Shown here: positions 924 through 51,214 of the stretch, one piece after another | How positions within the stretch are numbered: the first letter of the stretch is position 1 | Layout: every line of letters begins with the position of its first letter | Source: a virus | Taxonomy: Duplodnaviria; Caudoviricetes | Reading direction: 5' to 3' (one strand) | Virus record (IMG/VR): IMGVR_UViG_3300036791_000368 | Coordinates: 1 to 52,434 of that record | Length of the DNA stretch: 52,434 bases | Notes under the pieces: generated by a model | The model's input: the letters and a program-made list of their open reading frames with translations, nothing else | Databases searched by the model: none | What the model was told of the DNA's origin: nothing | Program-made: the position numbers and the translations under genes

Positions 924-1139
924 GCCGGAAGGTGAAGGTGAGTAACGTGTAAGCGACCCCGCAGGACACCACATACGCTTCAGGACGCTGATGGGCAACC
1001 ATGTGGTGAGCCCACTCTGCCCAAAATTGGGGCAACTTTCACGCGCGCCGGGCGGATTAGGGGGTCCGGCCAGCTGGAGATAGTGGGCCGGTCAAACCGG
1101 CTGGCAGGACATAATCACCACAGGGTCAGGAAAACCTCT

Positions 1140-1545
1140 AATCCTGACTAAATAGTTCCGTTATTATAAAGGTACAGGATTACCTTAAAGTAGTCACCTA
1201 TTAGGCAAATAAAAAAAACACGACGTAATATAAGAGTCAGGAGTTCCCAAAACTAGGGCCTTACGGTAGTTTTTGGGTACTTGTCGGGGGAAGATTTATA
1301 CATATATTACTGATATAATATAGTCCTAATATATATATATCCTGATATTTAAGCGGAAATCCCGTCACGAGTGACGGCCGGGGATTCCTAACATATTACG
1401 GCATATTATATGTGTTATTACCGTAATATATTACTAATCGTTACATAACATATTACGACATAGGTAATATATGTGACCGTAATATATTACTTATCCTGAC
1501 AGAAGAGAGGGAGATTACCTGACTCTTTACGTAAAAGCCGCAGTC
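1140..1545. other. AT-rich non-coding region with palindromes; candidate replication origin or control region
   Basis: No ORF of 60 aa or more. Palindrome GTAATATATTAC at 1423-1434 and 1479-1490. TAACATATTACG at 1389-1400 and 1446-1457. Hairpin CCGTCAC-GA-GTGACGG near 1362-1377. Confidence 0.5.
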
Positions 1546-1549
1546 TCCT

Positions 1550-1600
1550 AATAGCACCAAATAGGACTCTAGATTTGTCCTATGACAATGCTATATAATA
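1550..1600 (+). promoter_or_regulatory. Repeated phage promoter copy 2
   Basis: AATAGCAC box, TAGATT 1570-1575, 18-bp spacer, TATAAT 1594-1599. Confidence 0.85.
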
Positions 1601-1635
1601 TCATTATACCAAAAAATAAAGGAGCAGGTATAAAC

Positions 1636-1872
1636 ATGTCAGAGGAAGAGACGGAGCAGGACTTCAAAAAGATCCACGTCCACCACTGGAAGACGGACGA
1701 CGTGGAACCAATGGACGAGTTCGATCTCGTCTGGAATGAGGTTTACGACCAGATCGGAGAGGAAGACGAACACTTCGTTCAGTACATCCTCGTGTGGTCC
1801 CGAGACGGAGTCGGAGACCCTAAAGAGTGGTTCGAACTTCGAGTACCGAAGCATCTCCCGACAAGTTCGTAA
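1636..1872 (+). CDS. Acidic hypothetical protein
   Basis: AAGGAG RBS, after promoter 2. Confidence 0.75.
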   Translation: MSEEETEQDFKKIHVHHWKTDDVEPMDEFDLVWNEVYDQIGEEDEHFVQYILVWSRDGVGDPKEWFELRVPKHLPTSS

Positions 1873-1888
1873 GAAAGGTAGAAACAAT

Positions 1889-2044
1889 ATGTATTACGGC
1901 ATGGAACAAATAGAGGTGGACAACCGAGACTCGTTGACCACCTGGTTACGTTTCCCGAACGGGATCATCCTCGAGGTCACATTGCAGGATCTTCAGGATC
2001 TCATCCAGAACATGAATGACAACGCCGTCAAGGAAGAAAGGTAG
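1889..2044 (+). CDS. Hypothetical protein
   Basis: GAAAGG RBS, ATG at 1889, fills the gap. Confidence 0.6.
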   Translation: MYYGMEQIEVDNRDSLTTWLRFPNGIILEVTLQDLQDLIQNMNDNAVKEER

Positions 2045-2049
2045 ACCCT

Positions 2050-2415
2050 GTGGAGAACAACGGCAACCACAACGACGACGCTTCTGAGTACTGGGACCCT
2101 AAGGAATTTGTGCGTGACGACGTCATTACGGACTGGGAGGGGTTTACCAGTCCAGAAGAGATGAGTCAGCACATCGGGTGGATCCGGCGCTTGGTTACCG
2201 ACCACCCGGAATCGCCGGCGGTGTCATTCGTTGCGGATCTGACACTACACTGGGTTCACGAGAACATGGACCAGGCGGATAACAGCCCAACTGAGGCAGA
2301 AACAATAGAGATGTACTACGCGATCCTGAACGTCTTTGATGGCGGAAGTTTCATGAAGTCCGGAATCGATTGGCGGGGCGAGGCACCTTCAAATAGCACC
2401 ATAGAGGACGCTTGA
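2050..2415 (+). CDS. Acidic hypothetical protein
   Basis: ORF with RBS; its stop lies in the -35 hexamer of promoter 3. Confidence 0.75.
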   Translation: MENNGNHNDDASEYWDPKEFVRDDVITDWEGFTSPEEMSQHIGWIRRLVTDHPESPAVSFVADLTLHWVHENMDQADNSPTEAETIEMYYAILNVFDGGSFMKSGIDWRGEAPSNSTIEDA

Positions 2416-2443
2416 TTTGTCCCTAGGGTCTGCTTGATAATAG
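2392..2443 (+). promoter_or_regulatory. Repeated phage promoter copy 3
   Basis: AATAGCAC box, TTGATT 2412-2417, 18-bp spacer, GATAAT 2436-2441. Confidence 0.8.
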
Positions 2444-2481
2444 TAGTATGATCGAGATTTTGAGAAGGGAGGTGAAGAAAT

Positions 2482-2763
2482 ATGACTGACACAGATACGC
2501 TTACCGGATACGGTGTGCACACGCTGGCGAACAAGGCACTCGTCGTTGAGGGCCTGGAGAAGATCCCGCCGCAAATGGTGTACTCGTACATCCGTAACAA
2601 GCTGATCCCGACCGTTTTGGTTGGGACTCAGACTCGCGTGACTCGTGAGGCCGCGGAAACGTGGGTGGCAAAGTTTGTTGCCAACCGCGTTCGGCGCGCC
2701 AATGAGGCACTGGAAGTCGAGGCCCCGGCTGAGACTGACGAGTTGGTGGATGAGGTCGGCTAA
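2482..2763 (+). CDS. Xis/MerR-like winged-HTH DNA-binding protein (paralogue 1)
   Basis: IPPQMVYSYIRNKLIPTV...TRVTREAAETW fits the excisionase-like HTH pattern; GGAGGTGA RBS. Confidence 0.65.
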   Translation: MTDTDTLTGYGVHTLANKALVVEGLEKIPPQMVYSYIRNKLIPTVLVGTQTRVTREAAETWVAKFVANRVRRANEALEVEAPAETDELVDEVG

Positions 2764-2818
2764 GGCACTCATCGTCAGCACAGCGACCGAAGGCGCCACA
2801 AGTGGGACTAAGTTCCCT

Positions 2819-2900
2819 ACCGAAACACAATGTGTTTCGGTGGCTTGTGTAGGTCGGCAGGTTAACTCCTTTTCCTGTCGGCCTACACAAGCTACCGAAA
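2819..2900 (+). promoter_or_regulatory. Overlapping RNA hairpins upstream of an RBS
   Basis: 27-bp stem 2835-2861/2874-2900 whose three non-Watson-Crick pairs are all G-U on the + strand. Competing 11-bp stem at 2819-2841. Confidence 0.7.
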
Positions 2901-2914
2901 GAAAGGAGGTGAGA

Positions 2915-3094
2915 ATGTATAAGTGGACGAAGACGTACGCAGTGAACACGAAGTTCAGTGACCCTGTGGAAATCGGGCAAATCATTGAGGTTGACGCGGC
3001 TTCTGGTAGTTCCAAGCAGAAGGTGCTGTCAGTCACAGTGCGCCGCAACCAAAAGGGTGACGAGTACAAGACAGTCATCGTTGAGGCTGTCTGA
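2915..3094 (+). CDS. Hypothetical protein (59 aa)
   Basis: AAGGAGGTGA RBS, ATG at 2915. Confidence 0.75.
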   Translation: MYKWTKTYAVNTKFSDPVEIGQIIEVDAASGSSKQKVLSVTVRRNQKGDEYKTVIVEAV

Positions 3095-3319
3095 ACAGGA
3101 AAAGGAGAAGAACATTGCTGCACCAATTGCTGCATCAAGCAGTTACGGTGTACCATTTGCCTGTCAAGCACATTACGTGCTGGAAAACAGGTCCAAACAC
3201 GGCAAGTTGCTGGCTCTGGGGCGATCACCATTTCCGGGCGATTTCTGAAGCCACCCGAACACGCAACACCTGGAAAGGCATCTTCAGTTAGCCTTCAACA
3301 ACCAGGAAAGGAGGTGAAC

Positions 3320-3544
3320 ATGAAAATAAAGCCGTGGTGTAGTCATCACTTGACCGCACTCCAGTGTGAGCCGGAAGACACTGATTGCCTGCGCCTAATC
3401 GAGAACGGTTGGTATCAGGTCGACCTCGGCGCTTGGTGGTGTCCACAAAATCAGCAGAACCAGAAAACTGGCGCCGAAGACGAAGCAGGTGAAGAGTTCG
3501 GCGAATGTCGCTGGGCTTGGACGGTCTTGTCCTTGTCGCTCTAG
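3320..3544 (+). CDS. Cys/Trp-containing hypothetical protein
   Basis: AAGGAGGTGA RBS. Confidence 0.7.
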   Translation: MKIKPWCSHHLTALQCEPEDTDCLRLIENGWYQVDLGAWWCPQNQQNQKTGAEDEAGEEFGECRWAWTVLSLSL

Positions 3545-3596
3545 GAAGGTGGAAGAGCTCCGGCTCTTCTCCCTGCCTAAATTGGGTCCTGAGCAA

Positions 3597-3648
3597 AATA
3601 GCACCAAATCGCACTCTTGATTTGTCCTTATGTCCTGCGTTATAATAG
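3597..3648 (+). promoter_or_regulatory. Repeated phage promoter copy 4
   Basis: AATAGCAC then AATCGCAC boxes, TTGATT 3617-3622, TATAAT 3641-3646. Confidence 0.85.
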
Positions 3649-3676
3649 AAGTAAGAGAGAGAAAAGGAGGTGAGAA

Positions 3677-3883
3677 ATGGATGATGAAAAGATGCGGATC
3701 ATTGATGAGATTGTGAACAATCCTGAAGTACAGGAAAAGGTGCACGCACAATTGCGGAAAGAGTTCCAGTGCTCTGACGGCACAATTGATGAGATCCTGG
3801 GATCAATGCCGGAAGGAGATAATGAGCCGGCGCTGTACGCACGGTACTACGAACTGTTGCAGGGCTACTGCGACAACGCCTGA
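3677..3883 (+). CDS. Hypothetical protein
   Basis: AAGGAGGTGA RBS, after promoter 4. Confidence 0.75.
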   Translation: MDDEKMRIIDEIVNNPEVQEKVHAQLRKEFQCSDGTIDEILGSMPEGDNEPALYARYYELLQGYCDNA

Positions 3884-3918
3884 TCAAAATCAGGCAACAA
3901 ACCGGAAGGGAGGTGAAC

Positions 3919-4149
3919 GTGAAACACAAAAACCGGAACGGGATAAAAGTGACTTGTTACTGGTGCAAGAACGACAACCACCAGTCCTGCAGCAATGAGG
4001 ACCCAGACCTCAGTGAGTACGTGTACTGCCATTGTGAGTGCCAACCTCCCTGTGGAGAGCCAAACTGTGACAAGGCCGTTCGCCTAACAAAACGAGCACC
4101 AGGAACCGTAACCAAATGGAAGCACGACGACCCCAGGTGGGAGCGGTAA
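3919..4149 (+). CDS. Cys-rich putative zinc-binding protein
   Basis: CYWC..HQSC..CHCEC..C..C; GGAGGTGA RBS. Confidence 0.7.
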   Translation: MKHKNRNGIKVTCYWCKNDNHQSCSNEDPDLSEYVYCHCECQPPCGEPNCDKAVRLTKRAPGTVTKWKHDDPRWER

Positions 4150-4153
4150 CAAA

Positions 4154-4206
4154 AATAGCACCCAAATCGCACGCTTGATTTGTCCTAAGTACCTCAGTTA
4201 TAATAG
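4154..4206 (+). promoter_or_regulatory. Repeated phage promoter copy 5
   Basis: AATAGCAC and AATCGCAC boxes, TTGATT 4175-4180, TATAAT 4199-4204. Confidence 0.85.
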
Positions 4207-4237
4207 AGGTAGAGAGAGCAAGAGAAAAGGAGCAAAA

Positions 4238-4780
4238 ATGGACAGAGACGAACGGCTAGCAAAGATTGCAGCAATCGTCTGCCCGGTCTGCAACGCACGG
4301 CCCAATGAACCGTGCGACGATGGGGTGGAAGGCATTGAGCCGTATTTCCATCTTGGCCGAGGACGTGTTGCCGACGCTTTGTACGGCGAAGATAGCGGAA
4401 AAGTCAGCAACTCGGAGATGGACGGTATGAGAATGCCGATCAGCATCTTTGGCCCACCAGATACCGAGGGCAAGGTAGTAACAATTCCAGTTCAGTGGTT
4501 GATCGATTTGGTCAACGTCAAGGATTTGTCCCGGGGTACGTTAGGAATGGTACTTGATTCCGAGTCCGTAGTGGAACTCATGGATCGTACACCGTTCAAC
4601 GTCGGTGGATTCTTCAGGATGACAGAGGACGGAGACATCGAACGATTGGAAGGATCAGAACTAGAAGCGCCCGATTTCATGATGTTGGGCGACGCAGTCC
4701 GTAACGGTATGGAAGAGCTTCAGGAGATAGAACGCAAGTGGAGCGAGACGGAAGACCAAGCGTTCGGAAGGGGGGAGTAA
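4238..4780 (+). CDS. Protein with N-terminal C3H zinc finger
   Basis: CPVCNARPNEPC...FHLGR; AAGGAG RBS. Confidence 0.75.
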   Translation: MDRDERLAKIAAIVCPVCNARPNEPCDDGVEGIEPYFHLGRGRVADALYGEDSGKVSNSEMDGMRMPISIFGPPDTEGKVVTIPVQWLIDLVNVKDLSRGTLGMVLDSESVVELMDRTPFNVGGFFRMTEDGDIERLEGSELEAPDFMMLGDAVRNGMEELQEIERKWSETEDQAFGRGE

Positions 4781-5028
4781 TGAACGACAAGGAAGCGCTT
4801 GAAGAAGCGTACAATGAACGAGAGCGGCAGTACAGGAAAATAGCCCGCTCAAGGTTCTGCGGGAAGTGCGGAGCGGAAGTAGGAGCACCATGTGTTTCCG
4901 GAAATGGAAAGAAGCAGGCACGCTTCCATGCCGACCGGATTTCATCGATTCCCAAAGAGATACCGGAGCTAATGCGGATCAACGCACGAATCGACCGGCT
5001 GCAAGAACGAGTGTACGGGAAGAGGTAG
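4780..5028 (+). CDS. C3H zinc-finger protein related to the upstream gene
   Basis: CGKCGAEVGAPC...FHADR has the same spacing as the finger in 4238-4780. Confidence 0.75.
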   Translation: MNDKEALEEAYNERERQYRKIARSRFCGKCGAEVGAPCVSGNGKKQARFHADRISSIPKEIPELMRINARIDRLQERVYGKR

Positions 5029-5033
5029 GAAAG

Positions 5034-5243
5034 ATGACACGATACCACGTGTTCACAACTACAGAGTTCATTGACGCTGATACCCCAGCGGAAGCGTGTG
5101 GGAAGTTTCTAGAGGTAATCAACAAGTTGCTGATCATCGTTGAGGAACAGACAGAGGTCAGTGAGAAGGCTCCTTACGGATTCATCATTCATGAGTTCCC
5201 CGGTGACCCTGATGACCCAGGTCAAAACAAAAATCGCACCTAA
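5034..5243 (+). CDS. Hypothetical protein
   Basis: GAGGT RBS; its stop lies within promoter 6. Confidence 0.65.
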   Translation: MTRYHVFTTTEFIDADTPAEACGKFLEVINKLLIIVEEQTEVSEKAPYGFIIHEFPGDPDDPGQNKNRT

Positions 5244-5283
5244 TAGCACTCTTGATTTGTCCCTCGGACATGCTATATAATAG
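5232..5283 (+). promoter_or_regulatory. Repeated phage promoter copy 6
   Basis: AATCGCAC and AATAGCAC boxes, TTGATT 5252-5257, TATAAT 5276-5281. Confidence 0.85.
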
Positions 5284-5311
5284 AAGTATGAATGAGGAAA
5301 AAGGAGAGCAA

Positions 5312-5479
5312 ATGAACCCTTGCAGCGAGCCAGACGGTAATGAGTTGGTAGACGATGTGCCAGCTCATGTGCTGATGCTTCGAGAGACAGGGCAATGCCC
5401 TTGGTGCGGTGAGACAGAGTTGAAGTACAACACCAGGATGGACCCAATCAGTCCAGACTTCGACATCAGGAGCTGGTAG
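5312..5479 (+). CDS. Small CPxCG-motif protein
   Basis: AAGGAG RBS; CPWCG. Confidence 0.65.
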   Translation: MNPCSEPDGNELVDDVPAHVLMLRETGQCPWCGETELKYNTRMDPISPDFDIRSW

Positions 5480-5488
5480 GAGGCGAAT

Positions 5489-5701
5489 ATGGAACCTATG
5501 TTTGGCTACGTCATGAAGAAGGGCGCCAAGACGTTACACGTCTGGTGTGATGGCTACGGAGGCAGCGGTGGACGCAAGCCTGTGTCACTGACAGTCTGCG
5601 GGCTATCAATCGAAGGCGGACTTCGCTACAAGACAGCCCCGCCCGAAGCACTTGCGAAGGCGGGCGTCAAGGTGTGCAGGCGCTGTAAGCCTGACCAATA
5701 A
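5489..5701 (+). CDS. Small putative zinc-binding protein
   Basis: H...CG...CRRC; AGGAGG RBS. Confidence 0.7.
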   Translation: MEPMFGYVMKKGAKTLHVWCDGYGGSGGRKPVSLTVCGLSIEGGLRYKTAPPEALAKAGVKVCRRCKPDQ

Positions 5702-5752
5702 ATAGCACCTAAGAGGACGCTTGATTTTCCATTGGGTCTTGCTATATAATAG
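5701..5752 (+). promoter_or_regulatory. Repeated phage promoter copy 7
   Basis: AATAGCAC box, TTGATT 5721-5726, TATAAT 5745-5750. Confidence 0.85.
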
Positions 5753-5786
5753 AAGTATCATCAAACAAGAGAGGAAAGGAAACATC

Positions 5787-6164
5787 ATGTCGGAACAAGA
5801 AATAGTAATTCCCGAGCCTGAGGAGGTGACACCTGAGCAGCTCCAGGAGGAGCTTACCACAGGGTCAAACCTTCGTGGCATCGGCCTTGAGCAGGAGGGA
5901 GACATCGAGCGCATGCAGGAGCAGCTCGAGCACGGTGTCATCAACCCAATCCTGCTCGCGAGGTACATCAGCGTTCGTCCGCAGATGATTTACCAAGCCA
6001 TCCGCGACGGAAAGCTGACCGCAGTTGACTTCAACAACACCCAGAAGAAGTTCATCCGCATCGAGGAGGCGATCAGGTACGCCAGTCGTTACCTCAACAG
6101 GAAGCAGCAGCGCGACCTGGAGAAGCTCCGGGAAGAAGCCATCCTGAAGCAGCAGGCCAGTTAG
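5787..6164 (+). CDS. Xis/MerR-like winged-HTH DNA-binding protein (paralogue 2)
   Basis: INPILLARYISVRPQMIYQAIRDGKL...KFIRIEEA; acidic N-terminus. Confidence 0.7.
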   Translation: MSEQEIVIPEPEEVTPEQLQEELTTGSNLRGIGLEQEGDIERMQEQLEHGVINPILLARYISVRPQMIYQAIRDGKLTAVDFNNTQKKFIRIEEAIRYASRYLNRKQQRDLEKLREEAILKQQAS

Positions 6165-6184
6165 TTGTTCAACCTACTAAAGGT

Positions 6185-6220
6185 ACCAGGACGCCGAGGA
6201 GGAATCTTCGGCGTCCTGGT
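6185..6220 (+). terminator. GC-rich hairpin after the HTH gene
   Basis: ACCAGGACGCCGA...TCGGCGTCCTGGT inverted repeat. Confidence 0.5.
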
Positions 6221-6230
6221 TACTGGCGCG

Positions 6231-6362
6231 ATGTTCTTTTGGTTCGGGTTGTTCAGTCTGGCTGCAGGCTTCATTGGGCAGGCAATCGTTGTCTTCCTCG
6301 TACCATTACTGGTGGTCATACTTGTTGTAGCGAAGCTGATTGGGAAACTTAAGGCCAAATAG
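6231..6362 (+). CDS. Small membrane protein
   Basis: Hydrophobic stretch with a basic C-terminus; start uncertain (ORF open from 6165). Confidence 0.5.
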   Translation: MFFWFGLFSLAAGFIGQAIVVFLVPLLVVILVVAKLIGKLKAK

Positions 6363-6398
6363 GCTCCTTGATTTCCAGTTTTGACTCCGTTATAATAG
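6358..6398 (+). promoter_or_regulatory. Repeated phage promoter copy 8
   Basis: TTGATT 6368-6373, 17-bp spacer, TATAAT 6391-6396. Confidence 0.8.
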
Positions 6399-6472
6399 AT
6401 GTATGCAAGAAAGAAAGGAGGACACCTATGACTCCAGATTGACTTGTCCGTACTCAAACATTGGAGTGACGT

Positions 6473-6880
6473 GTGAACGTCGTTGCCTTGTTGATCATGG
6501 TCATGACAGGCATGACAGGTCATCAATCCCACCCGTTACCGGCACTCCCAACCACTACCACCACAGTAGCACCGACAACGACGTCGACCACGGCAGTTGC
6601 GACAACGACAACAACGTCGCCACCGTCGTCTCCGGTAGAGGTACCTGCATCAGTTATGCAGGCATGGGAGAAAGTTGCCATGTGCGAAGAAGGAGGTAAC
6701 TGGAACGTGAGAGGGTCCAAGTACTCAGGTGGACTCGGGATCTCAAACGTCAACTGGGTAGCATACGGAGGAACACAGTATGCATCTAACGCAGCGGACG
6801 CGACACCAGAAGAACAGGTGACCGTCGCTGAACGGATTCAAACCAGCCCGCCTGATCAGTACGGGTGCGCGAGCTGGTAA
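6473..6880 (+). CDS. rpf: Secreted resuscitation-promoting factor (Rpf)-like transglycosylase
   Basis: Hydrophobic N-terminus, Thr/Pro linker, then WEKVAMCEEGGNW...YSGGLGI...W.AYGG...A..ATPEEQV.VAERI, the Rpf core with the catalytic Glu. Confidence 0.88.
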   Translation: MNVVALLIMVMTGMTGHQSHPLPALPTTTTTVAPTTTSTTAVATTTTTSPPSSPVEVPASVMQAWEKVAMCEEGGNWNVRGSKYSGGLGISNVNWVAYGGTQYASNAADATPEEQVTVAERIQTSPPDQYGCASW

Positions 6881-6882
6881 GA

Positions 6883-6978
6883 ACTAGTCACGATCCACTA
6901 CGGGGTTGTGGTTGTGACTAGCAGTCGGTGTGTAGGGCCTGTGTTACTTATCCCTAGGAGCCAGGCCCTGCACCCGGC
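6883..6978 (+). promoter_or_regulatory. Two hairpins between rpf and the next RBS
   Basis: CTAGTCAC...GTGACTAG and GTGTAGGGCCTG...CAGGCCCTGCAC (G-U compatible), followed by AGGAGGTGA. Confidence 0.55.
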
Positions 6979-6997
6979 ATCGGAGAGGAGGTGAAGA

Positions 6998-7171
6998 ATG
7001 GGTAAATGGTATGAGGACTACAGCAACATCGTGTTACTGGCACGATGGATGGTCGAGCACGGTCGTACAGCACAAAACGTAGCAGACATGGTTGAGAAGC
7101 CTTGGCACTGGTACGCTGAGTACGGAGCAGCTAAGTGGCAAGCACAACAGGAGGCCGCAGCTGCCAGTTGA
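6998..7171 (+). CDS. Hypothetical protein (57 aa, not in ORF track)
   Basis: AGGAGGTGA RBS; MGKWYEDYSNIVLLARWMVEHGRTAQNVADMVEKPWHW... Confidence 0.75.
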   Translation: MGKWYEDYSNIVLLARWMVEHGRTAQNVADMVEKPWHWYAEYGAAKWQAQQEAAAAS

Positions 7172-7400
7172 ACGGTTTGGTAGAGAACCAGACTGGTGTC
7201 AAGTAAGAGGGACCAACAGTTGGCACCTGATTAACGCCAGAAGGCCTACAGTTCGCAGAACATTCATCACGGCTTGCGGAGTGGTAGTACCTGTCTCGGT
7301 GAAGCGGTACGACGTGTATTGGCCTTGGGAGATACCAAGTGCTTGTCGACACTGTAAGAAGGTCCTAGACAACTGGATGGAAGAGAGGATGAGCTCGTGA
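7161..7400 (+). CDS. Putative zinc-binding protein
   Basis: H...TACG...CRHC; start uncertain. Confidence 0.55.
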   Translation: MPVERFGREPDWCQVRGTNSWHLINARRPTVRRTFITACGVVVPVSVKRYDVYWPWEIPSACRHCKKVLDNWMEERMSS

Positions 7401-7693
7401 AGAAGAAGTACAAGAAGTACCTGAAGTGGTTCGCGAAGACCGAACTTGCTGAGATGGACCGTCTAAGTGTAATCGAGTTATTTGACATAGACGATCTCCA
7501 CGACTTCGCACGCGAGAAGGGATACAAGTACAGTCCAGACGACTTACTTTTTCACGGATGGTCGGTACAGAAAGTACTCGACTACGGGTTCACAGAAGAG
7601 GAGCTACTAACATCCTGTCGCTATCCTGAACTAGAAGAAGGACAGCTAGAGCTCCTTGAGCAAATGGTTGAGGGAACGAACGATGCCAACTAA
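7397..7693 (+). CDS. Hypothetical protein
   Basis: GTGA overlap with the upstream gene. Confidence 0.7.
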   Translation: MKKKYKKYLKWFAKTELAEMDRLSVIELFDIDDLHDFAREKGYKYSPDDLLFHGWSVQKVLDYGFTEEELLTSCRYPELEEGQLELLEQMVEGTNDAN

Positions 7694-8213
7694 GTATCAG
7701 GAGTACGAACAGGCGGTCCTAGACATGATGTGGAGCGAGTGTCAGCTGCATCCAGATGACGAAGATGAGTACGTCTGGATAGGAGGCCTGACTCGAAGGA
7801 TCCATGATCTTTTCCCTATCGGTGTGAATGCAGGCAGTATCTTAAAGGCGTTGAAAGACTCAGGTGCAATTCAAGAACTTAGCCGAGGCGGAGGACAAAC
7901 GCCGTCTGTCTACTGGTTACGTAGACGTAACCTTGCAGTCGACGACGACGGCCAACCTATAGAGGTCAAGGCGCATCCATACTCCGTATCCAAACAAGAG
8001 GCAGAGGCACAAAGTTATGCAGGGCTGAACTATCGACTACATAACCTAGAAAAGTTCCTGCCTATGTTGCTGGAGATCGCTACCGAACGTTCAGGTGCGC
8101 CATCGCCAGCCGAGCAGATCGCTGCAGCATTCGACGAGGCGGCTTCGGGTAGCATTAAGGATCAACTGCAGGCACTTCTGCCCGAAGAAAATAGCACACA
8201 AGAGGACACTTGA
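7683..8213 (+). CDS. Hypothetical protein, possible winged-helix
   Basis: ILKALKDSGAIQELSRGGGQTPSVYWL resembles a recognition helix plus wing; its stop lies in promoter 9. Confidence 0.7.
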   Translation: MPTKYQEYEQAVLDMMWSECQLHPDDEDEYVWIGGLTRRIHDLFPIGVNAGSILKALKDSGAIQELSRGGGQTPSVYWLRRRNLAVDDDGQPIEVKAHPYSVSKQEAEAQSYAGLNYRLHNLEKFLPMLLEIATERSGAPSPAEQIAAAFDEAASGSIKDQLQALLPEENSTQEDT

Positions 8214-8240
8214 TTGTCATCTATGACATGCTATATAATA
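8190..8240 (+). promoter_or_regulatory. Repeated phage promoter copy 9
   Basis: AATAGCAC box, TTGATT 8210-8215, TATAAT 8234-8239. Confidence 0.85.
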
Positions 8241-8270
8241 TAAGTATGATCAAAGAGAAAGGATACAACA

Positions 8271-8450
8271 TTGGTATACATAACTAATGCGGAGGTGGCG
8301 GAGCACGACGTCAAGGAGTTCCTCGAGAAGGAACTGCCTGAGAAGTGCGGCGTCGAACACACGCACATCGAAGACAACCTCGCCACTGTGTTGATGACAG
8401 ACGGGAGTAGGCTGGTTGTCATGCTTCACACTAGTGGCCCAGAACTATGA
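8271..8450 (+). CDS. Hypothetical protein (59 aa, TTG start, not in ORF track)
   Basis: GAAAGGA RBS; ATGA overlap with the next gene. Confidence 0.6.
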   Translation: MVYITNAEVAEHDVKEFLEKELPEKCGVEHTHIEDNLATVLMTDGSRLVVMLHTSGPEL

Positions 8451-8641
8451 TCAAGTGGCAAGAAGTAACTGAGGGGACGGCGAACCTAGAACAAGTCCTC
8501 AAGGAGGTTAGTCTCGTACTGACACCCTACCAGTTCGTAGTACTGAACGAAGTCATTCGTGAGTATACCCACGACAAGGGTTGCGACTCTCGAATCTATG
8601 AGGTGCTCAAGAACATTCAGTTCGACTTCGTGAAGAAATGA
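8447..8641 (+). CDS. Hypothetical protein
   Basis: Translationally coupled ORF. Confidence 0.65.
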   Translation: MIKWQEVTEGTANLEQVLKEVSLVLTPYQFVVLNEVIREYTHDKGCDSRIYEVLKNIQFDFVKK

Positions 8642-8859
8642 ACGCTGACATGACAGTAGCAGAGGCCACGCTCGTCTGGAACAACCTCAATAGCATGACT
8701 GAGGAAGACTTCGGAGGCTCTTACCCCATCGAGGTAATCGAGCAGGTATGTGAGGCAGCCTGCGTACTAGGTTTAATGTGCAAGTCGTCTATTGACGGTG
8801 AGGTAAACTATAGCCTCACGGAGAAAGGCCGGAACAGAAAACGAGGTGAAGATGCATAA
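8638..8859 (+). CDS. Hypothetical protein, possible winged-helix
   Basis: Coupled ORF ending YSLTEKGR. Confidence 0.65.
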   Translation: MNADMTVAEATLVWNNLNSMTEEDFGGSYPIEVIEQVCEAACVLGLMCKSSIDGEVNYSLTEKGRNRKRGEDA

Positions 8860-9055
8860 GATCCAAACAATGGCGTGTCCCATGTGTGACGAGCAACCAA
8901 CCGTCGAGCTAACGGACGAGGAGTACGAAGCACTGAAATCAGGTACACTGATCCAGAAAGCGATGCCTACACGGTCAGCAGACTTCCGCGAGAAGTTCCT
9001 CTCGGGCTACTGCGGTAAGTGTTGGGACATTGTCTTCCCGCCAGAGGAGGAGTAA
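8852..9055 (+). CDS. C4 zinc-ribbon protein
   Basis: CPMC...CGKC; GAGGTGA RBS. Confidence 0.75.
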   Translation: MHKIQTMACPMCDEQPTVELTDEEYEALKSGTLIQKAMPTRSADFREKFLSGYCGKCWDIVFPPEEE

Positions 9056-9228
9056 TGGACGTACGAGACTTTTTCAAGTGCCAAGCGAGCATAGACAGAG
9101 GCGAGAAGTGTCTATCGTGTGAGGCTGACTGGCAAGAGGTGCCGGGAGAGTCGGGACGTTCTCTATTCCATACTGAAGACTGTGCGTACCTAGCCGCAGA
9201 GCGAGTGAGTCAGGAGTATGATGTCTGA
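9055..9228 (+). CDS. Small putative zinc-binding protein
   Basis: CLSC...HTEDC; TAATG coupling. Confidence 0.7.
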   Translation: MDVRDFFKCQASIDRGEKCLSCEADWQEVPGESGRSLFHTEDCAYLAAERVSQEYDV

Positions 9229-9910
9229 TCGTCGATTCATGCCCGACAAAGTACGCAGACCTCGAGACGAAATGGTACTGGCGGTCGCACAACTTGAAAT
9301 AGCTGGACTGACAGTAGCTGGTAGTTGGAGACGACAGAAGGACACAATAGGCGACCTCGACATACTTGTACCGAACGTCTATAACATGGTGACAGCGGTA
9401 CATACTGCACAACTGTTCTTCGGCTACGAGGAGATCCGCGGCGGTGCTATGAAGTCAGAAGGCATAGCGACGTACAAAGATGCACCACTCCTCCTGAACT
9501 TCTGGTACGTACCAAATGAACTTGCCTGGGCGGGCATGTTATTGTTCGCCACAGGGCCACACGATCTGAACATCATGATGCGTGCGAAGGCCAAAGCACA
9601 AGGCAAAACACTTTCGCAGTACGGACTTTTCCAAGACGATGTTCAACTCGACAACGGCCTTGAGGAGGACCAAATCTTCGACCTCCTCGGCATTGTCTAC
9701 CTTACCCCTGTGGAGCGTGAGACGTGGCGGGACTATTTGATCAGGACGCCGAGCCCGAATATCGAGGTACAAGTCCCGAGCTCGGATGGAGTACACGCCT
9801 ATACCGTCACGCTGAAAGACGGGAAAGGTTTCGACTGTACTTGCAAAGGGTTCGCCTACAGGAACTCCTGCCGCCATCTCCGGGAAGCCGAGGAGCTTGG
9901 CAATGGATAA
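9221..9910 (+). CDS. polX: Minimal family X DNA polymerase-like nucleotidyltransferase fused to a SWIM zinc finger
   Basis: AGSWRR..TIGDLDILV; LFATGPHDLNIMMR; LSQYGLF; EEDQIFDLLGIVYLTPVERE; C-terminal CTC-x8-CRH. Confidence 0.85.
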   Translation: MSDRRFMPDKVRRPRDEMVLAVAQLEIAGLTVAGSWRRQKDTIGDLDILVPNVYNMVTAVHTAQLFFGYEEIRGGAMKSEGIATYKDAPLLLNFWYVPNELAWAGMLLFATGPHDLNIMMRAKAKAQGKTLSQYGLFQDDVQLDNGLEEDQIFDLLGIVYLTPVERETWRDYLIRTPSPNIEVQVPSSDGVHAYTVTLKDGKGFDCTCKGFAYRNSCRHLREAEELGNG

Positions 9911-10012
9911 AGGACTGGTGGTGGAAGCATACCCACGACCCGTACGATTGGATGGAGGAGTGCCCAGAGCTGGTACCTCCACCACGCCTTGTACACAGTA
10001 CCAAACATTCCA

Positions 10013-10054
10013 AATAGCACCCTAGATTTTCCATATGGAGCTGCTATATAATAG
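10013..10054 (+). promoter_or_regulatory. Repeated phage promoter copy 10
   Basis: AATAGCAC box, TAGATT 10023-10028, TATAAT 10047-10052. Confidence 0.85.
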
Positions 10055-10086
10055 TAGTAATAACAAAGAGAAAGGAGGTGAATATA

Positions 10087-10461: not shown

Positions 10462-10549
10462 TGAGGCGAGGGGAACCAGTGGAAAAGGTTCCCCTCCTCA
10501 CTTGGGTGCTCCAGTGGATGTAACCGGCGCTGGAGCACCCTAGTGAGGA
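10459..10549 (+). promoter_or_regulatory. Overlapping RNA hairpins upstream of an RBS
   Basis: Stem 10460-10477/10487-10502 competes with the 22-bp stem 10495-10516/10528-10549; AGGAGGTGA follows. Confidence 0.7.
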
Positions 10550-10564
10550 CGAGAGGAGGTGAAC

Positions 10565-10756: not shown

Positions 10757-10775
10757 CGGGAAACGGAAAGGGACA

Positions 10776-12948: not shown

Positions 12949-12997
12949 AAAGTATAAAAGTAAAAACTTTTATACAGGAACAGAAAGGAAATAAACA

Positions 12998-41190: not shown

Positions 41191-42102
41191 CTATGAATGT
41201 GGTGCTGTGAAGTCGTAGATCTGGATAGCCGAAATCGGACATACTGACTGAAAGTCAGCCGTGTACATACGCTTCGCAGCAGCACGACGGAACGCACCAC
41301 TTGCGTTCGCCAAACAAGTCGTCACTGGAACATACAGCCACCTCGGATACCCAAGACGGTTGGCCATGATCAGCGCAACAGCGTACTGCAGGATGGTATC
41401 CGTCGGATTCAGCTGGGTGTACCCAGGAACCGTCAGTGATGGTGCAGACGCTATAGCCAACATGTTGTAGGCCATCGCGAGCGTACTCGAAATGTCTTCA
41501 GACAACGCACCTGAGACGGTCAACGACTGTGTCGTCATTTCCATTGCAACTGGTGATGACTGCTCTTCAATGTTGATCGCCTGCGTCGACTTGTTCGATG
41601 CAAACGTCCAACCTTGGTCCGTGGCTCCTACTGGGGTCCACAGGGGTTGAGTGAGAGTCAGCGTACCACCAGTAATGCCTGTTGGTACCTGAGACCACGT
41701 ACCGCCCATCAGCCGCTCAGCAAGTGCGATCGAGAATGGCGTTCCAACTGCAGTCAAAGGACCACCGGTAACGCTCACCTCGGACGGCAGTGCTGGACCA
41801 CCAGCTGCAGCAGGAAATGTTGACAGTGCTGCCACAATCGCAGTCGCTAGCTGTGCTGCTGTAGCACTCCACTGAACCGGTGCTGTTGCATATGGTGTCC
41901 CAGCTACCGTGTACGTCATTATGAATGTACCAGCAGTCAAAGCACCAGACGTACTCAACGTTGCTGAAGCCCACGGTGCGAGTGAGAACGGATCTGTCAT
42001 CACCGCAGAAGCCGGGGGCGGCATCGGTGTGTTCGCAGGTGCAACCAAGCACGCAGCTTGACCAACAACGACGTTGTTGGTGTTGTACAATTGCCCAATC
42101 AT
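41191..42102 (-). CDS. Major tail protein
   Basis: Position; WTPVGATDQG; internal accessory domain. Confidence 0.8.
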   Translation of the reverse strand: MIGQLYNTNNVVVGQAACLVAPANTPMPPPASAVMTDPFSLAPWASATLSTSGALTAGTFIMTYTVAGTPYATAPVQWSATAAQLATAIVAALSTFPAAAGGPALPSEVSVTGGPLTAVGTPFSIALAERLMGGTWSQVPTGITGGTLTLTQPLWTPVGATDQGWTFASNKSTQAINIEEQSSPVAMEMTTQSLTVSGALSEDISSTLAMAYNMLAIASAPSLTVPGYTQLNPTDTILQYAVALIMANRLGYPRWLYVPVTTCLANASGAFRRAAAKRMYTADFQSVCPISAIQIYDFTAPHS

Positions 42103-45401: not shown

Positions 45402-46418
45402 CTATTGCTTGGCCCAGGCTTCGAGAAGCGCTGCTTCGCGATCGGCCTCGGAGTCTTTGTCCGAGAACCCTTGACCGCGCTCAGTCGCCATCTCGATAAA
45501 GCCTGTGGTCTCCTCGAGGATGTCCCGAAGTACCTTGGCTACGTCGATGGTATCTCCACCATGATTGCTCAAGTCGATAACCGGAGCCTGAGGCAGCTCG
45601 AGAACTGGCTTCGCCAGCATGACCAACGCAGGCGGAACGCCCTTGTCAATCCATTGCCGCGCCTCGTTGGCAAATTCCTGCCTCGCCAACTTGAGTTCCA
45701 GCTCTTCGATCCGCTGTAGGTTCGGATCTGTTACTGGTTGATCAGGCACCAAATCCATGAGGATCTCCTCCTCAGTCGGTAGGTTCGACAAGTCCGGAGC
45801 ACCTGGAACCGTATTTGGTTCTGGGTGCGCCGGTGGATCGGTGTCGCTAGACGAAGTCTCCACTGGTGGAGCTTCGTCCTTCGTCTGTGACATTTGCACC
45901 TCCTCGGTTGTCATATCGACTGTGTCGCCTACCTCCTCGGATAGCGACACCTCTTGCCAGGACGTCATACCCGTTACCCTTGGGTCTAACGTTCCCAACA
46001 CATGTTGAATCGCACGGGGAAACTTTGCCCCGTCCGCTCGATCTAGTCCTTCAATGATGCGTGCCGAGACTCCCAAGTTCGGGTTCTTCCGCACCAGGTC
46101 CGCAGCATCCTCGGTTAGGTCAAGGAGTACATCAAGGCCCTTATCGGTAACCTCCATGCCCTTTACCTCACCTCTGAAGCGCTCAGGATCCATTGTGTGG
46201 CTATTGTCGTCTTTGGCCAACAGAAACGCTACCTGATCGAACGCCCTCCCTCGAAACGAGGAAGCTAAGTCCGAAAGGTACTGATCGTCGAAACTGATCT
46301 TACGTCCCTTGTAGTTGATGGTTCCCCGCGGAAGCAGTTGCTTTCTCCACAGGGTGCTAGATAGTTCAACTGCCTCTTGCCGGTCCAGCGGAGCTAGTAA
46401 TGCGAACTCGCCGGCCAT
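45402..46418 (-). CDS. Capsid maturation protease/scaffold
   Basis: DNSH, GVSARI, HVLGTLDP; acidic coiled C-terminus. Confidence 0.8.
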   Translation of the reverse strand: MAGEFALLAPLDRQEAVELSSTLWRKQLLPRGTINYKGRKISFDDQYLSDLASSFRGRAFDQVAFLLAKDDNSHTMDPERFRGEVKGMEVTDKGLDVLLDLTEDAADLVRKNPNLGVSARIIEGLDRADGAKFPRAIQHVLGTLDPRVTGMTSWQEVSLSEEVGDTVDMTTEEVQMSQTKDEAPPVETSSSDTDPPAHPEPNTVPGAPDLSNLPTEEEILMDLVPDQPVTDPNLQRIEELELKLARQEFANEARQWIDKGVPPALVMLAKPVLELPQAPVIDLSNHGGDTIDVAKVLRDILEETTGFIEMATERGQGFSDKDSEADREAALLEAWAKQ

Positions 46419-48307: not shown

Positions 48308-49935
48308 CTATACTCCTCCACATACTCAGACTCGCCACCGTATTCAGTAACATACGCTTCTCCAGAGTCAACGCCGTGGAACCAAAGAGACATGACGACT
48401 GCATCAGCCGTATCGGGCGACCGTCGTAGTCGCTTTTTTGTAGCCTCTTTCGGTTCCACGGCGATTTTCGCCCCCGCACCTATGCGCCAACGAGGCGCGA
48501 TCAGGTCTCCAATCAGCTGATCATCAGGCGGCAGACACAGCCTGGTGGCAGGATTACTTGGGTCAAGCATCTCCCGAAGATTCCACCAGGCTGCGCTGCG
48601 CGTATTGGGGAAAGAAAATTCGCCATGAGCATCCATCATGGAGGTCTTGGCTGCTGAGTTGAACGACAATACCTCCTTGTCTTCCTCTCGCAACCGGTCG
48701 ACAACGCCTGCACCGATACCGATGACGTCGACGATCGCAAGTGTTGAGCCGTAGTTGTCCATTCGTCTGGCCAAACGGAGGGCGGTTGTCTGAGTGTCTT
48801 GCTGTCCAACGCGGTCGACACTGAGCACAACATATCCAACGCGCTCACAGACAGCCGTTTCATCGTCGCCAAAACGAGCAACGTCACACGAGAAAACGCG
48901 GGACCCGAGAAGCTCTTCCACAGGGAGACCGGACTCTTTGAAGGCATACCACCGCTCCACGGCTTGTTGTACCCAAGTCAGAGGAATCACACCATTTGAG
49001 TGCGAATCCTGCGGGAAACATGCTCTTACACGTGATTCCCATAGGGGTGTCGTCTGCCAAGCACCGTCAGAATCACGGTAAACGCCCCAGTCGAGCATAC
49101 GTTCTGCGACCCAAAGTGGAGACAGTAGAAGCTGTGACAGGTCAAACGGGATCTTTTCATGGCTAAAACCGATGTGATTCTCTACCATATACCCGTACAA
49201 ATCGCCTGTTTGGTTAGGAATATTGGAGACAACCTTGACCTCATCCTCGGAAAAGTTCGGGGATAATAGGCCATCTAGCACGACAACATTCCAGCCAGAT
49301 CCCGGTAGACACATGCGTGCGAACTCACTATTGGCATCATCTGGGTTACCGATCGCCAGTACACGCGCATTCTCGTTGGTTGCCAGGGCATCCACTGCCG
49401 TCCAAAGCTGCTCAGGGATCCCAGCAGCTTCATCGACCAAGATCAGAGGATAACGACAGTGGATGCCCTGGAAACCCGCTTCGTCATAGTCGGCTGGCTT
49501 ACGTCCATAGCCTACAAGCTCCTTACCAATCTTCCACTCTGGGATCCGTCCCATGTTAATCTGGCCTTGAAGGCCCAGTTTACGGTGCAACTTCTCAATC
49601 TCCCTCCACAGAACAGCGGAAACCTGCGCACTTGTAGGTGCGGTAGACACAACAAATGCCTCACCTAACTCGTGCTCTTCTATCCACTGACATGCAACAG
49701 CGGCCGCAAGAAACGATTTACCGAGATCGTGTGCCGAGGGAACTACCGTATAGCGGAACTTCCTGATCGTGGCTAGGACACGTTGCTGTCCTAAAGTTAG
49801 GTGAATCTTGCTCTTACGGAACCAAGCTTGAGGCTCCTTGGGTGGTCCGAACCACTCATCTGCGACGGAATGAATGAGCTGATGCGCCTCCGAAGGCCGT
49901 TTTGGTGGAAAGAAGGTCGACATCAGCTCATTCAC
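48304..49935 (-). CDS. terL: Terminase large subunit
   Basis: AHDLGKS, ILVDEA, IGNP, DVARFGDD, SPDTADA. Confidence 0.93.
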   Translation of the reverse strand: MNELMSTFFPPKRPSEAHQLIHSVADEWFGPPKEPQAWFRKSKIHLTLGQQRVLATIRKFRYTVVPSAHDLGKSFLAAAVACQWIEEHELGEAFVVSTAPTSAQVSAVLWREIEKLHRKLGLQGQINMGRIPEWKIGKELVGYGRKPADYDEAGFQGIHCRYPLILVDEAAGIPEQLWTAVDALATNENARVLAIGNPDDANSEFARMCLPGSGWNVVVLDGLLSPNFSEDEVKVVSNIPNQTGDLYGYMVENHIGFSHEKIPFDLSQLLLSPLWVAERMLDWGVYRDSDGAWQTTPLWESRVRACFPQDSHSNGVIPLTWVQQAVERWYAFKESGLPVEELLGSRVFSCDVARFGDDETAVCERVGYVVLSVDRVGQQDTQTTALRLARRMDNYGSTLAIVDVIGIGAGVVDRLREEDKEVLSFNSAAKTSMMDAHGEFSFPNTRSAAWWNLREMLDPSNPATRLCLPPDDQLIGDLIAPRWRIGAGAKIAVEPKEATKKRLRRSPDTADAVVMSLWFHGVDSGEAYVTEYGGESEYVEEYR

Positions 49936-49942
49936 TCACTCG

Positions 49943-50446
49943 TTAGACCGGCGCCACGTAGTCGGGCGGCTGGAATGGTGGCAGGTTGCCAAACACGAAC
50001 GCCTTGAGCGCTTCCTTCTGCTCGTCGCTCAGTCCCGGCGGCAGTACGATCGGGTGCTCGGGGTACACAGGCCAGTAGATCGGGTGTTCAGGGTGAGCGT
50101 CGTTGTCGGGCGGCGGTACCGGGACGTAAATCGGTGGCATCACCCAGGGTGGCAACTCATTGTCGACCCCTGGTTGGGCACCTGGCAGTGTGTTGTCAAT
50201 GCCGGGCTGGTCACCTGGCAACGTGTTGTCGATCCACTCAGGTGGTACACCGCCCCAGAAGCCTGGTGGACTACCTGGTGGCGGCACCGGAATGTAAATC
50301 GGTGGTGACGGACGTGGATCATTCGGACCCCAAATGCTGAGCGGTGGCTCGATCGGAATGTAGATCGGTGGCATGGGGTGATCGTCTTCGTCAGCCGAAA
50401 CCAACATAGTTCCCTCGACTACAACGTTAACCTTCTTCAGTGGCAT
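49943..50446 (-). CDS. Proline-rich repeat protein
   Basis: Repeats PPIY(I/V)P, (I/V)DN(T/E)LP three times, PEHPI twice. Confidence 0.7.
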   Translation of the reverse strand: MPLKKVNVVVEGTMLVSADEDDHPMPPIYIPIEPPLSIWGPNDPRPSPPIYIPVPPPGSPPGFWGGVPPEWIDNTLPGDQPGIDNTLPGAQPGVDNELPPWVMPPIYVPVPPPDNDAHPEHPIYWPVYPEHPIVLPPGLSDEQKEALKAFVFGNLPPFQPPDYVAPV

Positions 50447-50486
50447 ACTGCTCCTCTCATCATGTTGCTCTCATTGGTCGGGTTTG

Positions 50487-50675
50487 TCATTCAGATCCAT
50501 GATCCTTCCCGTTTGTGGGAAGAGTAACAAGAATAATTGCCAGTCCGCCTAGAAGGCCGACCGTTCCGAGTAACTCAGTGCTGATCGACTGATTCTGCGT
50601 GAGTACGATGAGCGACAATGTAAGCGTGCCTACTCCCAATAGGATAAGGTAGGCGACGCGGCGCGCCCTGGTCAT
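50487..50675 (-). CDS. Two-TM membrane protein, holin candidate
   Basis: Two hydrophobic helices, charged termini. Confidence 0.6.
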   Translation of the reverse strand: MTRARRVAYLILLGVGTLTLSLIVLTQNQSISTELLGTVGLLGGLAIILVTLPTNGKDHGSE

Positions 50676-50709
50676 TCATTTTCCACAGGGTGTTGGAGTC
50701 ATAGGTGCC

Positions 50710-51180
50710 TCATGCTGGTAGTGCGAGGGTGAAGGGTAACGTGTTGCCAATCACGTTGTCCCCAGCGTCCAGGACGGATATCGCCGAGCTTGCATCGCCT
50801 GACGTGTCGGTGACACCAGAGGGTATGGCGAACACGATCTGCGTGTCGGTCTGCGTCCAAAAAGCACTACCCGCAAGTACAACCGACCCATCCGGGAGTA
50901 GAATCGACGCTACTCCCATCAAGCCTGTCCCCGTTATCGTGATCAGGTCGCCTGCCCATCCTGACCCTGGTACAACACTCTGCAGATCCGGACCAGTGGA
51001 AGCAATGGTTGACCACGTACCCACGTTGTGAGGCGTGTTTGGGTCCCATCTGAGCCCTGCTTCTCGGTCTTCCCATACTGGACCAGGGCCTGGATCGGGA
51101 GACTGTGTGACTGTGTCCCACGCTTGCATCTCCGGGTCCCATAGGTGTCCCGTCGAGTAGCGGACCCAAACAGGCATCAT
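50710..51180 (-). CDS. IPT/TIG-like domain protein
   Basis: LQSVVPGSGWAGDLITITGTGL...TDTQIVFAIP. Confidence 0.65.
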   Translation of the reverse strand: MMPVWVRYSTGHLWDPEMQAWDTVTQSPDPGPGPVWEDREAGLRWDPNTPHNVGTWSTIASTGPDLQSVVPGSGWAGDLITITGTGLMGVASILLPDGSVVLAGSAFWTQTDTQIVFAIPSGVTDTSGDASSAISVLDAGDNVIGNTLPFTLALPA

Positions 51181-51214
51181 GAGGCCTTTGATCCACAGGG
51201 GCTAGTTGTTACAG

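Follow-up and report, generated by a model that had tools for sequence, protein, structure and literature searches.

A Selected Octamer Repeated throughout a Phage Genome and Its Possible Reading by the Phage's Own RepB'-type Primase

Sequence-specific Primases and Other Dispersed DNA Words

Primases that begin synthesis at a defined sequence are known from several replication systems. For the RepB' primase of RSF1010, specific binding to 6 nt of single-stranded DNA has been reported, with primer synthesis beginning at the T within a GTG triplet (PMC8567376). The pRN1 primase is described as priming on GTG only and requiring its helix bundle (PMC2965215), and the NrS-1 primase-polymerase as using GTGG or GTGA together with an 8-nt site (PMC8718748). 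The present work concerns an 8-letter word, CCACAGGG (complement-strand form 5'-CCCTGTGG-3'), which is repeated throughout IMG/VR virus record IMGVR_UViG_3300036791_000368, here termed the window, a whole virus contig of 52,434 bp annotated as "linear" and 87% complete (CheckV). The complement of this word and of its variants in related phages (termed dialects) contains GTG, as do the start sites of RepB' (ssiA and ssiB of RSF1010), pRN1 ORF904 and NrS-1, and the window phage encodes a protein whose structural model has the RepB' fold with both the catalytic and the helix-bundle domain of the helix-bundle archaeo-eukaryotic primases (AEPs). The 8-nt site of NrS-1 is a precedent for a strict 8-letter word (PMC8718748). 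Differences are apparent in number and arrangement. RepB' acts at one origin with a pair of 40-nt sites, each bearing a hairpin, and for NrS-1 the authors suggest that the 8-nt site marks a specific start, whereas the candidate site in the window phage is 8 nt (to 11 in some relatives), is present in 20-30 copies on both strands and is selected, with primer start at these copies being a prediction. No ssiA-like hairpin is present beside the copies in the site contexts of the window.

Dispersed words with other functions have also been described. Cluster A mycobacteriophage stoperators are 13-bp sites that run with transcription, are mostly intergenic and are read by the prophage repressor. With about 25-35 asymmetric short sites per ~50-kb actinophage genome they resemble the window word, which differs from them in being 8 bp long, mostly intragenic and found in either orientation (16 copies against and 12 with transcription, combining 20 genic sites with our own reading of the other 8). 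DNA uptake sequences (DUS/USS) are, like the window word, hyper-abundant, strict and frame-independent, but they saturate the host chromosome, whereas the window word is confined to phages. Chi-rich phages (E. coli LLS and other lambdoids; PMC12315714) similarly carry a strict octamer far above chance that is apparently selected. Chi is, however, a host word, enriched and polar in the host chromosome, whereas the window word is at or below its reversed control in most host-like genomes. The Chi-rich lambdoid phages are presented in the same source as lacking recombination genes, which the window phage has, and the Chi sites of LLS are stated there to cluster at the genome ends (PMC12315714), whereas the window word has no end polarity.

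Searches of the open-access PMC and bioRxiv literature with the exact word gave unrelated matches only, although supplements of phage-genome papers could mention such repeats, and in the same literature there was no account of the words and dialects of the cultured phages described below or of genome-wide enrichment of a primase site. Sequence-specific primases are known, and the new element would be a phage genome selected to carry a primase site every few kilobases, with dialects that track the primase family across host phyla. If this is true, primase specificity and perhaps origins would be predictable from phage sequence alone, and the word would be a means by which a phage aims replication at its own DNA. 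The pattern is also present in cultured phages (among them Arthrobacter phage Amigo, Gordonia phage Cozz and Microbacterium phage Chepli) and is hence open to testing at the bench.

Abundance of the Octamer and Its Maintenance by Selection

The window contains 28 copies of CCACAGGG (15 on the + strand and 13 on the - strand), equivalent to 0.53 per kb or about one per 2 kb. The chance level in 100 dinucleotide-preserving shuffles is 1.72 copies (standard deviation 1.29, maximum 6), a third-order Markov model predicts 1.07, and the word is far ahead of every other 8-mer in the window. The original prediction, made from the window sequence, had listed 28 sites with their orientations against an expectation of about 2; every site is present exactly at its listed position, and the two null models give a similar chance level. 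The word is sharply delimited, with a C preceding all 28 occurrences of CACAGGG and the final G missing from only four of the 32 occurrences of CCACAGG (14960-14967, 24006-24013, 38345-38352 and 45501-45508). The one-mismatch neighbors are at background with 0-4 copies each. The base immediately 5' of the word is T in 16 copies, A in eight, G in two and C in two; both the four truncated occurrences and the preference for T and A had been recorded at the outset and were reproduced.

The gene model used here, a rough set of 86 genes based on open reading frames (90% coding), places 22 of the 28 copies wholly within coding sequence, where they occupy all three codon phases and both orientations with respect to the gene. 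The six non-coding copies (1118-1125, 50683-50690 and 51193-51200 on the + strand; 2046-2053, 4048-4055 and 40611-40618 on the - strand) fall in ~10% of the DNA, a density 2.4-fold above that of coding sequence. In 300 synonymous-codon shuffles within genes the number of coding copies is 3.89 ± 1.76 (maximum 8), and when codons are shuffled genome-wide it is 3.15 ± 1.64 (maximum 9), compared with the 22 observed. The claim that a peptide motif cannot explain the sites is borne out by these counts and by the spread over phases and orientations.

Comparison with a relative, G1, over 35,643 aligned bases (79% identity) shows the whole word conserved at 14 of 20 aligned sites, compared with 21.1% of all 35,496 aligned 8-mers (binomial p = 3.6e-6). 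The conserved copies are those at 9549-9556, 11920-11927, 14820-14827, 22963-22970 (within folE), 28196-28203, 33705-33712, 41638-41645 and 46347-46354 on the + strand and at 12358-12365, 13983-13990, 18827-18834, 24656-24663, 37088-37095 and the non-coding 40611-40618 on the - strand, with the copy at 12358-12365 also conserved in a more distant relative, G5. The remaining copies are located at 5857-5864, 26331-26338, 30811-30818 and 48918-48925 (+) and at 2962-2969, 9706-9713, 22180-22187, 28586-28593 and 30640-30647 (-), the last within a collagen-like Pro-Gln-Gly-Pro stretch. Only one of the four sites that can be aligned with G5 is common to both genomes although G5 has 25 copies, indicating that density is maintained while positions turn over. 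The word is therefore kept by selection. Survival of a codon-preserving null model and excess conservation in relatives were the two points on which the original prediction had staked its central idea of a selected protein-recognition word, and that idea is upheld by the shuffles, the conservation in G1 and the spread over phases and orientations. Spacing of the copies is weakly even in the window (coefficient of variation 0.66, P = 0.015) and in G1 (P = 0.036) but not in G5, and because the effect is weak and missing in G5 it carries no weight as an argument.

Relatives and Dialects

Phages related to the window through the portal and capsid genes are enriched for CCACAGGG in seven of seven cases, with 21 copies in the 51 kb of G1 (G001), 25 in the 55 kb of G5 (G005) and 0.24-0.53 per kb in five fragments; the range over all seven is also 0.24-0.53 per kb, and the reversed control word has 0-1 copies. 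Loci collected by a family A DNA polymerase (PolA) at least 60% identical to that of the window are enriched in nine of nine cases (0.34-0.89 per kb), and nine loci with more distant PolA are not enriched. The primase family is large, with 1,685 proteins at E < 1e-5 among 8,000 candidates scored. A profile of 30 primase members was used to collect 80 IMG/VR loci (the best 80 of 343 relatives), from which 22 loci shorter than 9 kb were dropped, leaving 58 with a primase identity of 45-84% and a GC fraction of 0.37-0.61. CCACAGGG is the top 8-mer in 19 of these 58 loci, and the 7-mer CCACAGG is enriched at z >= 4 in 31 loci and intermediate in a further 13.

The word in this family is not uniform. 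Dialects found in the primase loci include ACCACAGG, TCCACAGG and CCCACAGG, in which the flanks vary and A, T or C precedes the word. In two loci, G322 and G324, the motif is lengthened to the 11-mer AGACCACAGGG with 12 and 17 matches at up to one mismatch, compared with 3 and 1 for the reversed control. The sister record G131, whose PolA is 39% identical, has 35 copies of GACCACA, which take both orientations and fall in several phases, compared with 3 of the reversed control. CCACAGGG or its dialects thus mark a large clade of uncultured phages with one common replication module. Presence or absence of the SNF2 helicase gene, promising as a discriminator at an early stage, failed on whole records.

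Two further sets of words were observed in this family. AGCCTTAG or CAGCCTTAG is enriched in phage Amigo (L129; 7 copies vs 0.3), in G132 (8 vs 0.9) and in L058, otherwise distant members of the module family, and may be a common regulatory site. A sister clade negative for the word (L101, L102 and L115) is mildly enriched for ACGGTAAG, with 5 copies in each compared with ~0.3-0.4 expected, which may be a replacement dialect without TGTG.

Words of the CACA Type in Cultured Phages

The cultured phages carry primases at most ~32% identical to the window protein. Their genomes were scored by the rank of the best 6-mer of the form NCACAN among all 2,080 6-mers, a word in the top 8 being counted as positive, with this cut-off set after the ranks had been seen. 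Such a word is in the top 8 in all eight phages with a RepB'-like primase N-domain and in none of five controls (Fisher p = 0.0008), and in six of the eight carriers it is the most enriched 6-mer of all. These six are Arthrobacter phage Amigo (GCACAC, 81 copies vs 22 expected), Curtobacterium phage Yappy (CTGTGC, 86 vs 33), Stenotrophomonas virus Jojan60 (CTGTGC, 76 vs 33), Gordonia phage Cozz (CCACAC, 71 vs 24), Serratia phage Serbin (CCACAC, 62 vs 14) and Mycobacterium phage Maco2 (CCACAC, 68 vs 23). Clostridium phage CPAS-15 is at rank 3 (top word TCCACA, 50 vs 14 expected) and Microbacterium phage Chepli at rank 8, its top 8-mer being GGCCACAC (28 vs 2.9 expected). Best ranks in the controls, which have no RepB'-like domain, are 313 for Lysidious, 457 for Henoccus, 291 for Martha, 521 for DeepSoil15 and 182 for T7; TGGTC, one of the primase pentamers named in PMC12839067, ranks 13th of 512 in that genome (141 vs 84). 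The copies in Amigo are in both orientations and several phases, as in the window.

The distribution of the words does not follow the host. CCACA is found in phages of Serratia, Clostridium, Gordonia, Mycobacteroides and Microbacterium, and GCACAG in phages of Curtobacterium and Stenotrophomonas, so that the same words recur across Pseudomonadota, Bacillota and Actinomycetota and follow the tree of the module. A word that travels with a phage module across three host phyla must have a phage-encoded reader. On sequence comparison Streptomyces phage Henoccus is a natural swap, having window-type SNF2, PD-(D/E)XK, AAA_24, TerL, portal and capsid genes, without the primase or PolA, and no CACA word. 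Cozz, Serbin, Chepli, Maco2 and CPAS-15 match the window protein in its N-terminal primase part and not in the helicase/winged-helix part, and the word is still present.

A strand preference is evident in the structural arm of four cultured phages, with 27 vs 3 copies in Serbin, 21 vs 6 in Chepli, 24 vs 13 in Cozz and 39 vs 16 in Maco2, and the replication arms are unbiased. This polarity depends on position and not on transcription, which fits a reader of one strand.

Words of other kinds are prominent in two of the control genomes. Henoccus (L151, positions 1-50000), which has another primase family, contains TGTAAA in 39 copies (0.3 expected), CGTTTA in 38 and GTAAAC in 40, and Mycobacterium phage DeepSoil15 (L158) contains GGATCC in 80 copies (22.5 expected) and AACAGG in 75 (20.8 expected).

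The Candidate Reader and a Proposed Mechanism

The candidate reader is a 726-amino acid primase-helicase encoded at 18237-20417 on the + strand, which is predicted to comprise a RepB'-like AEP primase (approximately residues 1-302, with catalytic and helix-bundle domains in the model), an MCM/D5-like AAA+ helicase and a C-terminal winged helix. Pfam detects DUF3987 and a weak RepB_primase match (23.9 bits, just below the cut-off of 24.3), and a PDB sequence search with the primase gave chance-level matches only. The AlphaFold model (predicted local distance difference test score 85.5) has its best PDB fold match with the RepB' primase (3h20, E = 6.4e-9, 330 columns) and compares with the RepB' catalytic domain in complex with initiator DNA (3h25_A) at a TM score of 0.69 on the target. 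The other fold matches are MCM-type helicases for the middle of the protein and MarR-like winged helices for its end. Read on the complementary strand, all the dialects found include TGTG, with GTG inside it (TGTGGTC, GTGTGCC, CCTGTGC, GTGTGG and ATGTGGA), and so does CCCTGTGG.

In the mechanism proposed, CCACAGGG/CCCTGTGG would be a genome-wide recognition word whose reader belongs to the replication module that the phage itself encodes. The helicase of the primase-helicase would expose single strands, in which the primase domain (catalytic and helix-bundle) would recognize the word, its core being the GTG triplet where such primases begin, and would begin a primer at that point. With copies spaced ~2 kb apart and present on both strands, priming could occur on either strand in any part of the genome, and since host DNA carries the word at a 10-20-fold lower density, phage DNA would be primed in preference. 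The reading preferred here, though tentatively, is that CCACAGGG marks, across the genome, the places that the phage's own primase recognizes and starts from. We infer that the reader is the primase rather than the co-inherited polymerase or some other module protein, that all eight letters are read and that the word serves priming. The wider proposal is more doubtful, namely that phages with RepB'-type primases write an extended, GTG-centered primase word of 6-11 letters throughout their genomes, with word and primase drifting together into dialects as a phage-private "prime here" code of which host DNA is mostly free.

Several observations weigh against the primase as the reader. CCACAGG is not enriched in 14 of the 58 primase-bearing loci (z < 1.5), and no sharp word of any kind accompanies the primase in G132 and G134, so that the primase family is not sufficient for the word. 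Word status changes 2-5 times on every one of the trees of 10 module proteins, and comparison within the clade therefore cannot name the reader. The primase and PolA trees are congruent and PolA is always co-inherited, making the two inseparable as the gene that travels with the word. In G5 (L009-L011) the 12.9 kb at 15297-28218, from the tail to the terminase genes, is devoid of the 8-mer, with the remainder as dense as the window. No polarity of the replication or genome-end type is found in the window (15 orientation runs vs 14.9 expected, two-arc P = 0.84), and the same tests on G1 and G5 give no strand bias either. Pooled over eight genomes, with G1 excluded as not independent of the window, 125 copies run against and 91 with transcription, a weak preference in similar proportions in both arms. 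The characterized primases of this type need only GTG, so that the reading of eight letters is an assumption, and by our estimate roughly one in six random 8-mers would contain GTG or CAC. The support for the primase comes from comparison of sequences and a predicted fold. Apparent switch points in orientation (six + copies then six - copies in G5; six + then three - in the window) are not significant in the runs and two-arc permutation tests.

Alternative Explanations

The alternative that survives best, although it is considered unlikely, is a double-strand site bound either by a different protein of the replication module or by the C-terminal winged helix of the primase-helicase; if bound by the winged helix, the copies would act as helicase-loading sites scattered through the genome in the manner of origin iterons. 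Such a site would account for a word that is strict and orientation-independent in the window family, is 2.4-fold denser in non-coding DNA and is extended in G322 and G324 to an 11-bp motif, close to one helical turn, and a MarR-like winged helix is available at the end of the primase-helicase. It is less easily reconciled with the five cultured phages that lack the window-type C-terminal part and still have CACA words, or with the arm-specific polarity in Serbin, Chepli, Cozz and Maco2, which is unexpected for a symmetric function. The absence of enrichment of one-mismatch variants would also be unusual for sites of the transcription-factor type, and the genes common to the window, G1 and G5 yielded no other conserved DNA-binding protein. 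The original prediction had named a phage helix-turn-helix or zinc-finger protein as a possible reader, for which the early region would be the source. This was rejected since the early-region proteins are not conserved in G5, where CCACAGGG is the top 8-mer with 25 copies and where queC, queD, queE, folE, the genes for a 231-amino acid protein, the DJ-1 protein and the ligase, as well as all the small early genes of the window, are undetected (tblastn, E <= 1e-4, a search that small proteins may escape).

The word could instead be a Chi-like signal that tames the host AdnAB/RecBCD enzyme, or the phage's own SNF2 helicase and PD-(D/E)XK nuclease, so that word-bearing DNA is spared or recombined. 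The resemblance to Chi as a strict, dispersed and selected 8-mer is close, a need for both orientations would follow if ends can form at any point, phages rich in Chi are known (PMC12315714), and the phage encodes both a PD-(D/E)XK nuclease and an SNF2 helicase. The host-like genomes argue otherwise. They comprise the five Acidimicrobiaceae/Acidimicrobiales genomes nearest to the window by the Rpf protein described below, 121 Acidimicrobiia genomes and 201 Actinomycetota genomes, samples that partly overlap and the last of which includes eight unpublished genomes (G247, G136, G297, G180, G152, G273, G212 and G218). CCACAGGG is present at 0.025-0.056 per kb in the five nearest genomes, in four of which the reversed control word is commoner, and is not enriched in any of the 121 Acidimicrobiia genomes (maximum ~0.066 per kb vs 0.53 in the phage) or of the 201 Actinomycetota genomes (maximum ~0.074 per kb). 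CCACAGGG therefore belongs to the phage and is not a host word; mimicry of the Chi, KOPS or DUS type is unlikely as none of the sampled genomes is enriched, and a host-word reading of these types was rejected on the pattern counts in the 5 + 121 + 201 genomes. A density of one site per 15-40 kb would hardly be useful for repair in the host, and phages whose hosts belong to three phyla have the same words. Henoccus has the SNF2 and PD-(D/E)XK genes and no CACA word, a Rec module is present in the window phage but not in the Chi-rich lambdoid phages of PMC12315714, and polarity towards the genome ends was not found. With no enriched host among those sampled, a recombination module of its own and no end-directed polarity, the window phage offers little to the suggestion of the original prediction of a Chi-like word directed at a host helicase-nuclease, and Chi-like function of either kind is improbable.

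Still less probable is a word that serves as the target of a site-specific nick or base modification, introduced by the 7-deazaguanine system or by a nickase acting with the phage ligase. FolE, QueD, QueE, QueC, an ATP-dependent ligase, a PolX-like protein and HNH nucleases are all encoded by the phage, and the complement of the word holds TGT. The genes and the word are nevertheless separable in both directions. G5, in which the que genes, the 231-amino acid protein and the ligase are undetected at the threshold given above, still has 25 copies, so that the word is not tied to the 7-deazaguanine system, and loci such as G132, L092 and L109 have que genes and lack the word. A link to 7-deazaguanine was rejected on these two grounds. 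The known DpdA motifs given in PMC10484667 and PMC7544227 are 2-3 nt long (GA and GGC), and enrichment is not expected of modification targets.

A decoy by which the phage titrates DnaA, a response regulator or another DNA-binding protein of the host would be a more remote explanation again. The DnaA box is 9 bp long and starts with T-T-purine, and TCCACA is its 3' part, the similarity on which a DnaA decoy was originally suggested; T also precedes the word in 16 of the 28 copies. Comparison with the full box shows that only TCCACA fits, as at most 6 of the 9 positions can match, the upstream positions are not T-T-purine (at position -2, a purine in the box, 21 of the 28 copies have T or C) and the box does not extend to the invariant GGG. 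Dialects that alter the flanks and the recurrence of the same words in phages of three host phyla are likewise a misfit with any one host protein.

A functionless by-product of mutation bias, codon use or repeated peptides is scarcely credible, since one copy in the collagen-like Pro-Gln-Gly-Pro stretch is set against copies in all phases and both orientations, synonymous shuffles that give 3.9 copies vs 22, a 3-fold excess of conservation and one-mismatch neighbors at background.

The Phage Genome and Its Host

The left arm of the genome, on the + strand, contains many small early genes followed by the replication module, and the right arm, on the - strand, contains the lysis and structural genes. 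The module encodes, in its first part, a PolX-like/SWIM protein, the SNF2 helicase, a DJ-1/PfpI protein, the ATP-dependent ligase and the PD-(D/E)XK nuclease, followed by an AAA_24 ATPase, a DUF669 protein, an HNH nuclease, the primase-helicase and QueC, QueD and QueE. Next are a LAGLIDADG endonuclease, FolE, MazG and the 231-amino acid protein, which has no family match, and finally PolA, a second HNH nuclease and a RuvC-like resolvase. The phage carries its own recombination module. PolA (24779-27085, + strand), inherited together with the primase, has an N-terminal domain of the uracil-DNA-glycosylase superfamily (Pfam UDG, E = 9e-27) that is conserved in G1 and G5. The LAGLIDADG endonuclease gene (22346-22675), between queE and folE, has no counterpart in G1 or G5 by tblastn and is for this reason probably a recent homing endonuclease insertion. 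The 156-amino acid phrog_1981 protein encoded at 27919-28389 matches genes annotated as RuvC-like resolvases in Arthrobacter and Micrococcus phages (29-33% identity). Pfam and PHROGs searches gave no explanation for 51573-52022, 49943-50446, 12998-13414 and 24099-24794, and no integrase or repressor was recognized among the annotated genes of the window.

The nearest cultured phages have a capsid identity of only ~38%, and the stretch or part of it is present in three public soil-metagenome runs. A stand-alone Rpf gene (6473-6880; PF06737, 62 bits) has six relatives in the species-genome collection, the best being 73% identical over the core (Acidimicrobiaceae). All six are in Acidimicrobiaceae/Acidimicrobiales metagenome-assembled genomes and the host is therefore probably a member of the Acidimicrobiia, in agreement with the first guess made from the window.

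A second family of enriched words is located in the early region (342-15296) and consists of A+T-rich, TATAAT-like words with fixed flanks, with TATAATAGA in 8 copies and CTATTATA in 10. These A+T-rich words return in G1, G135, G325, G328 and G329 as TATAATA/ATTATA words.

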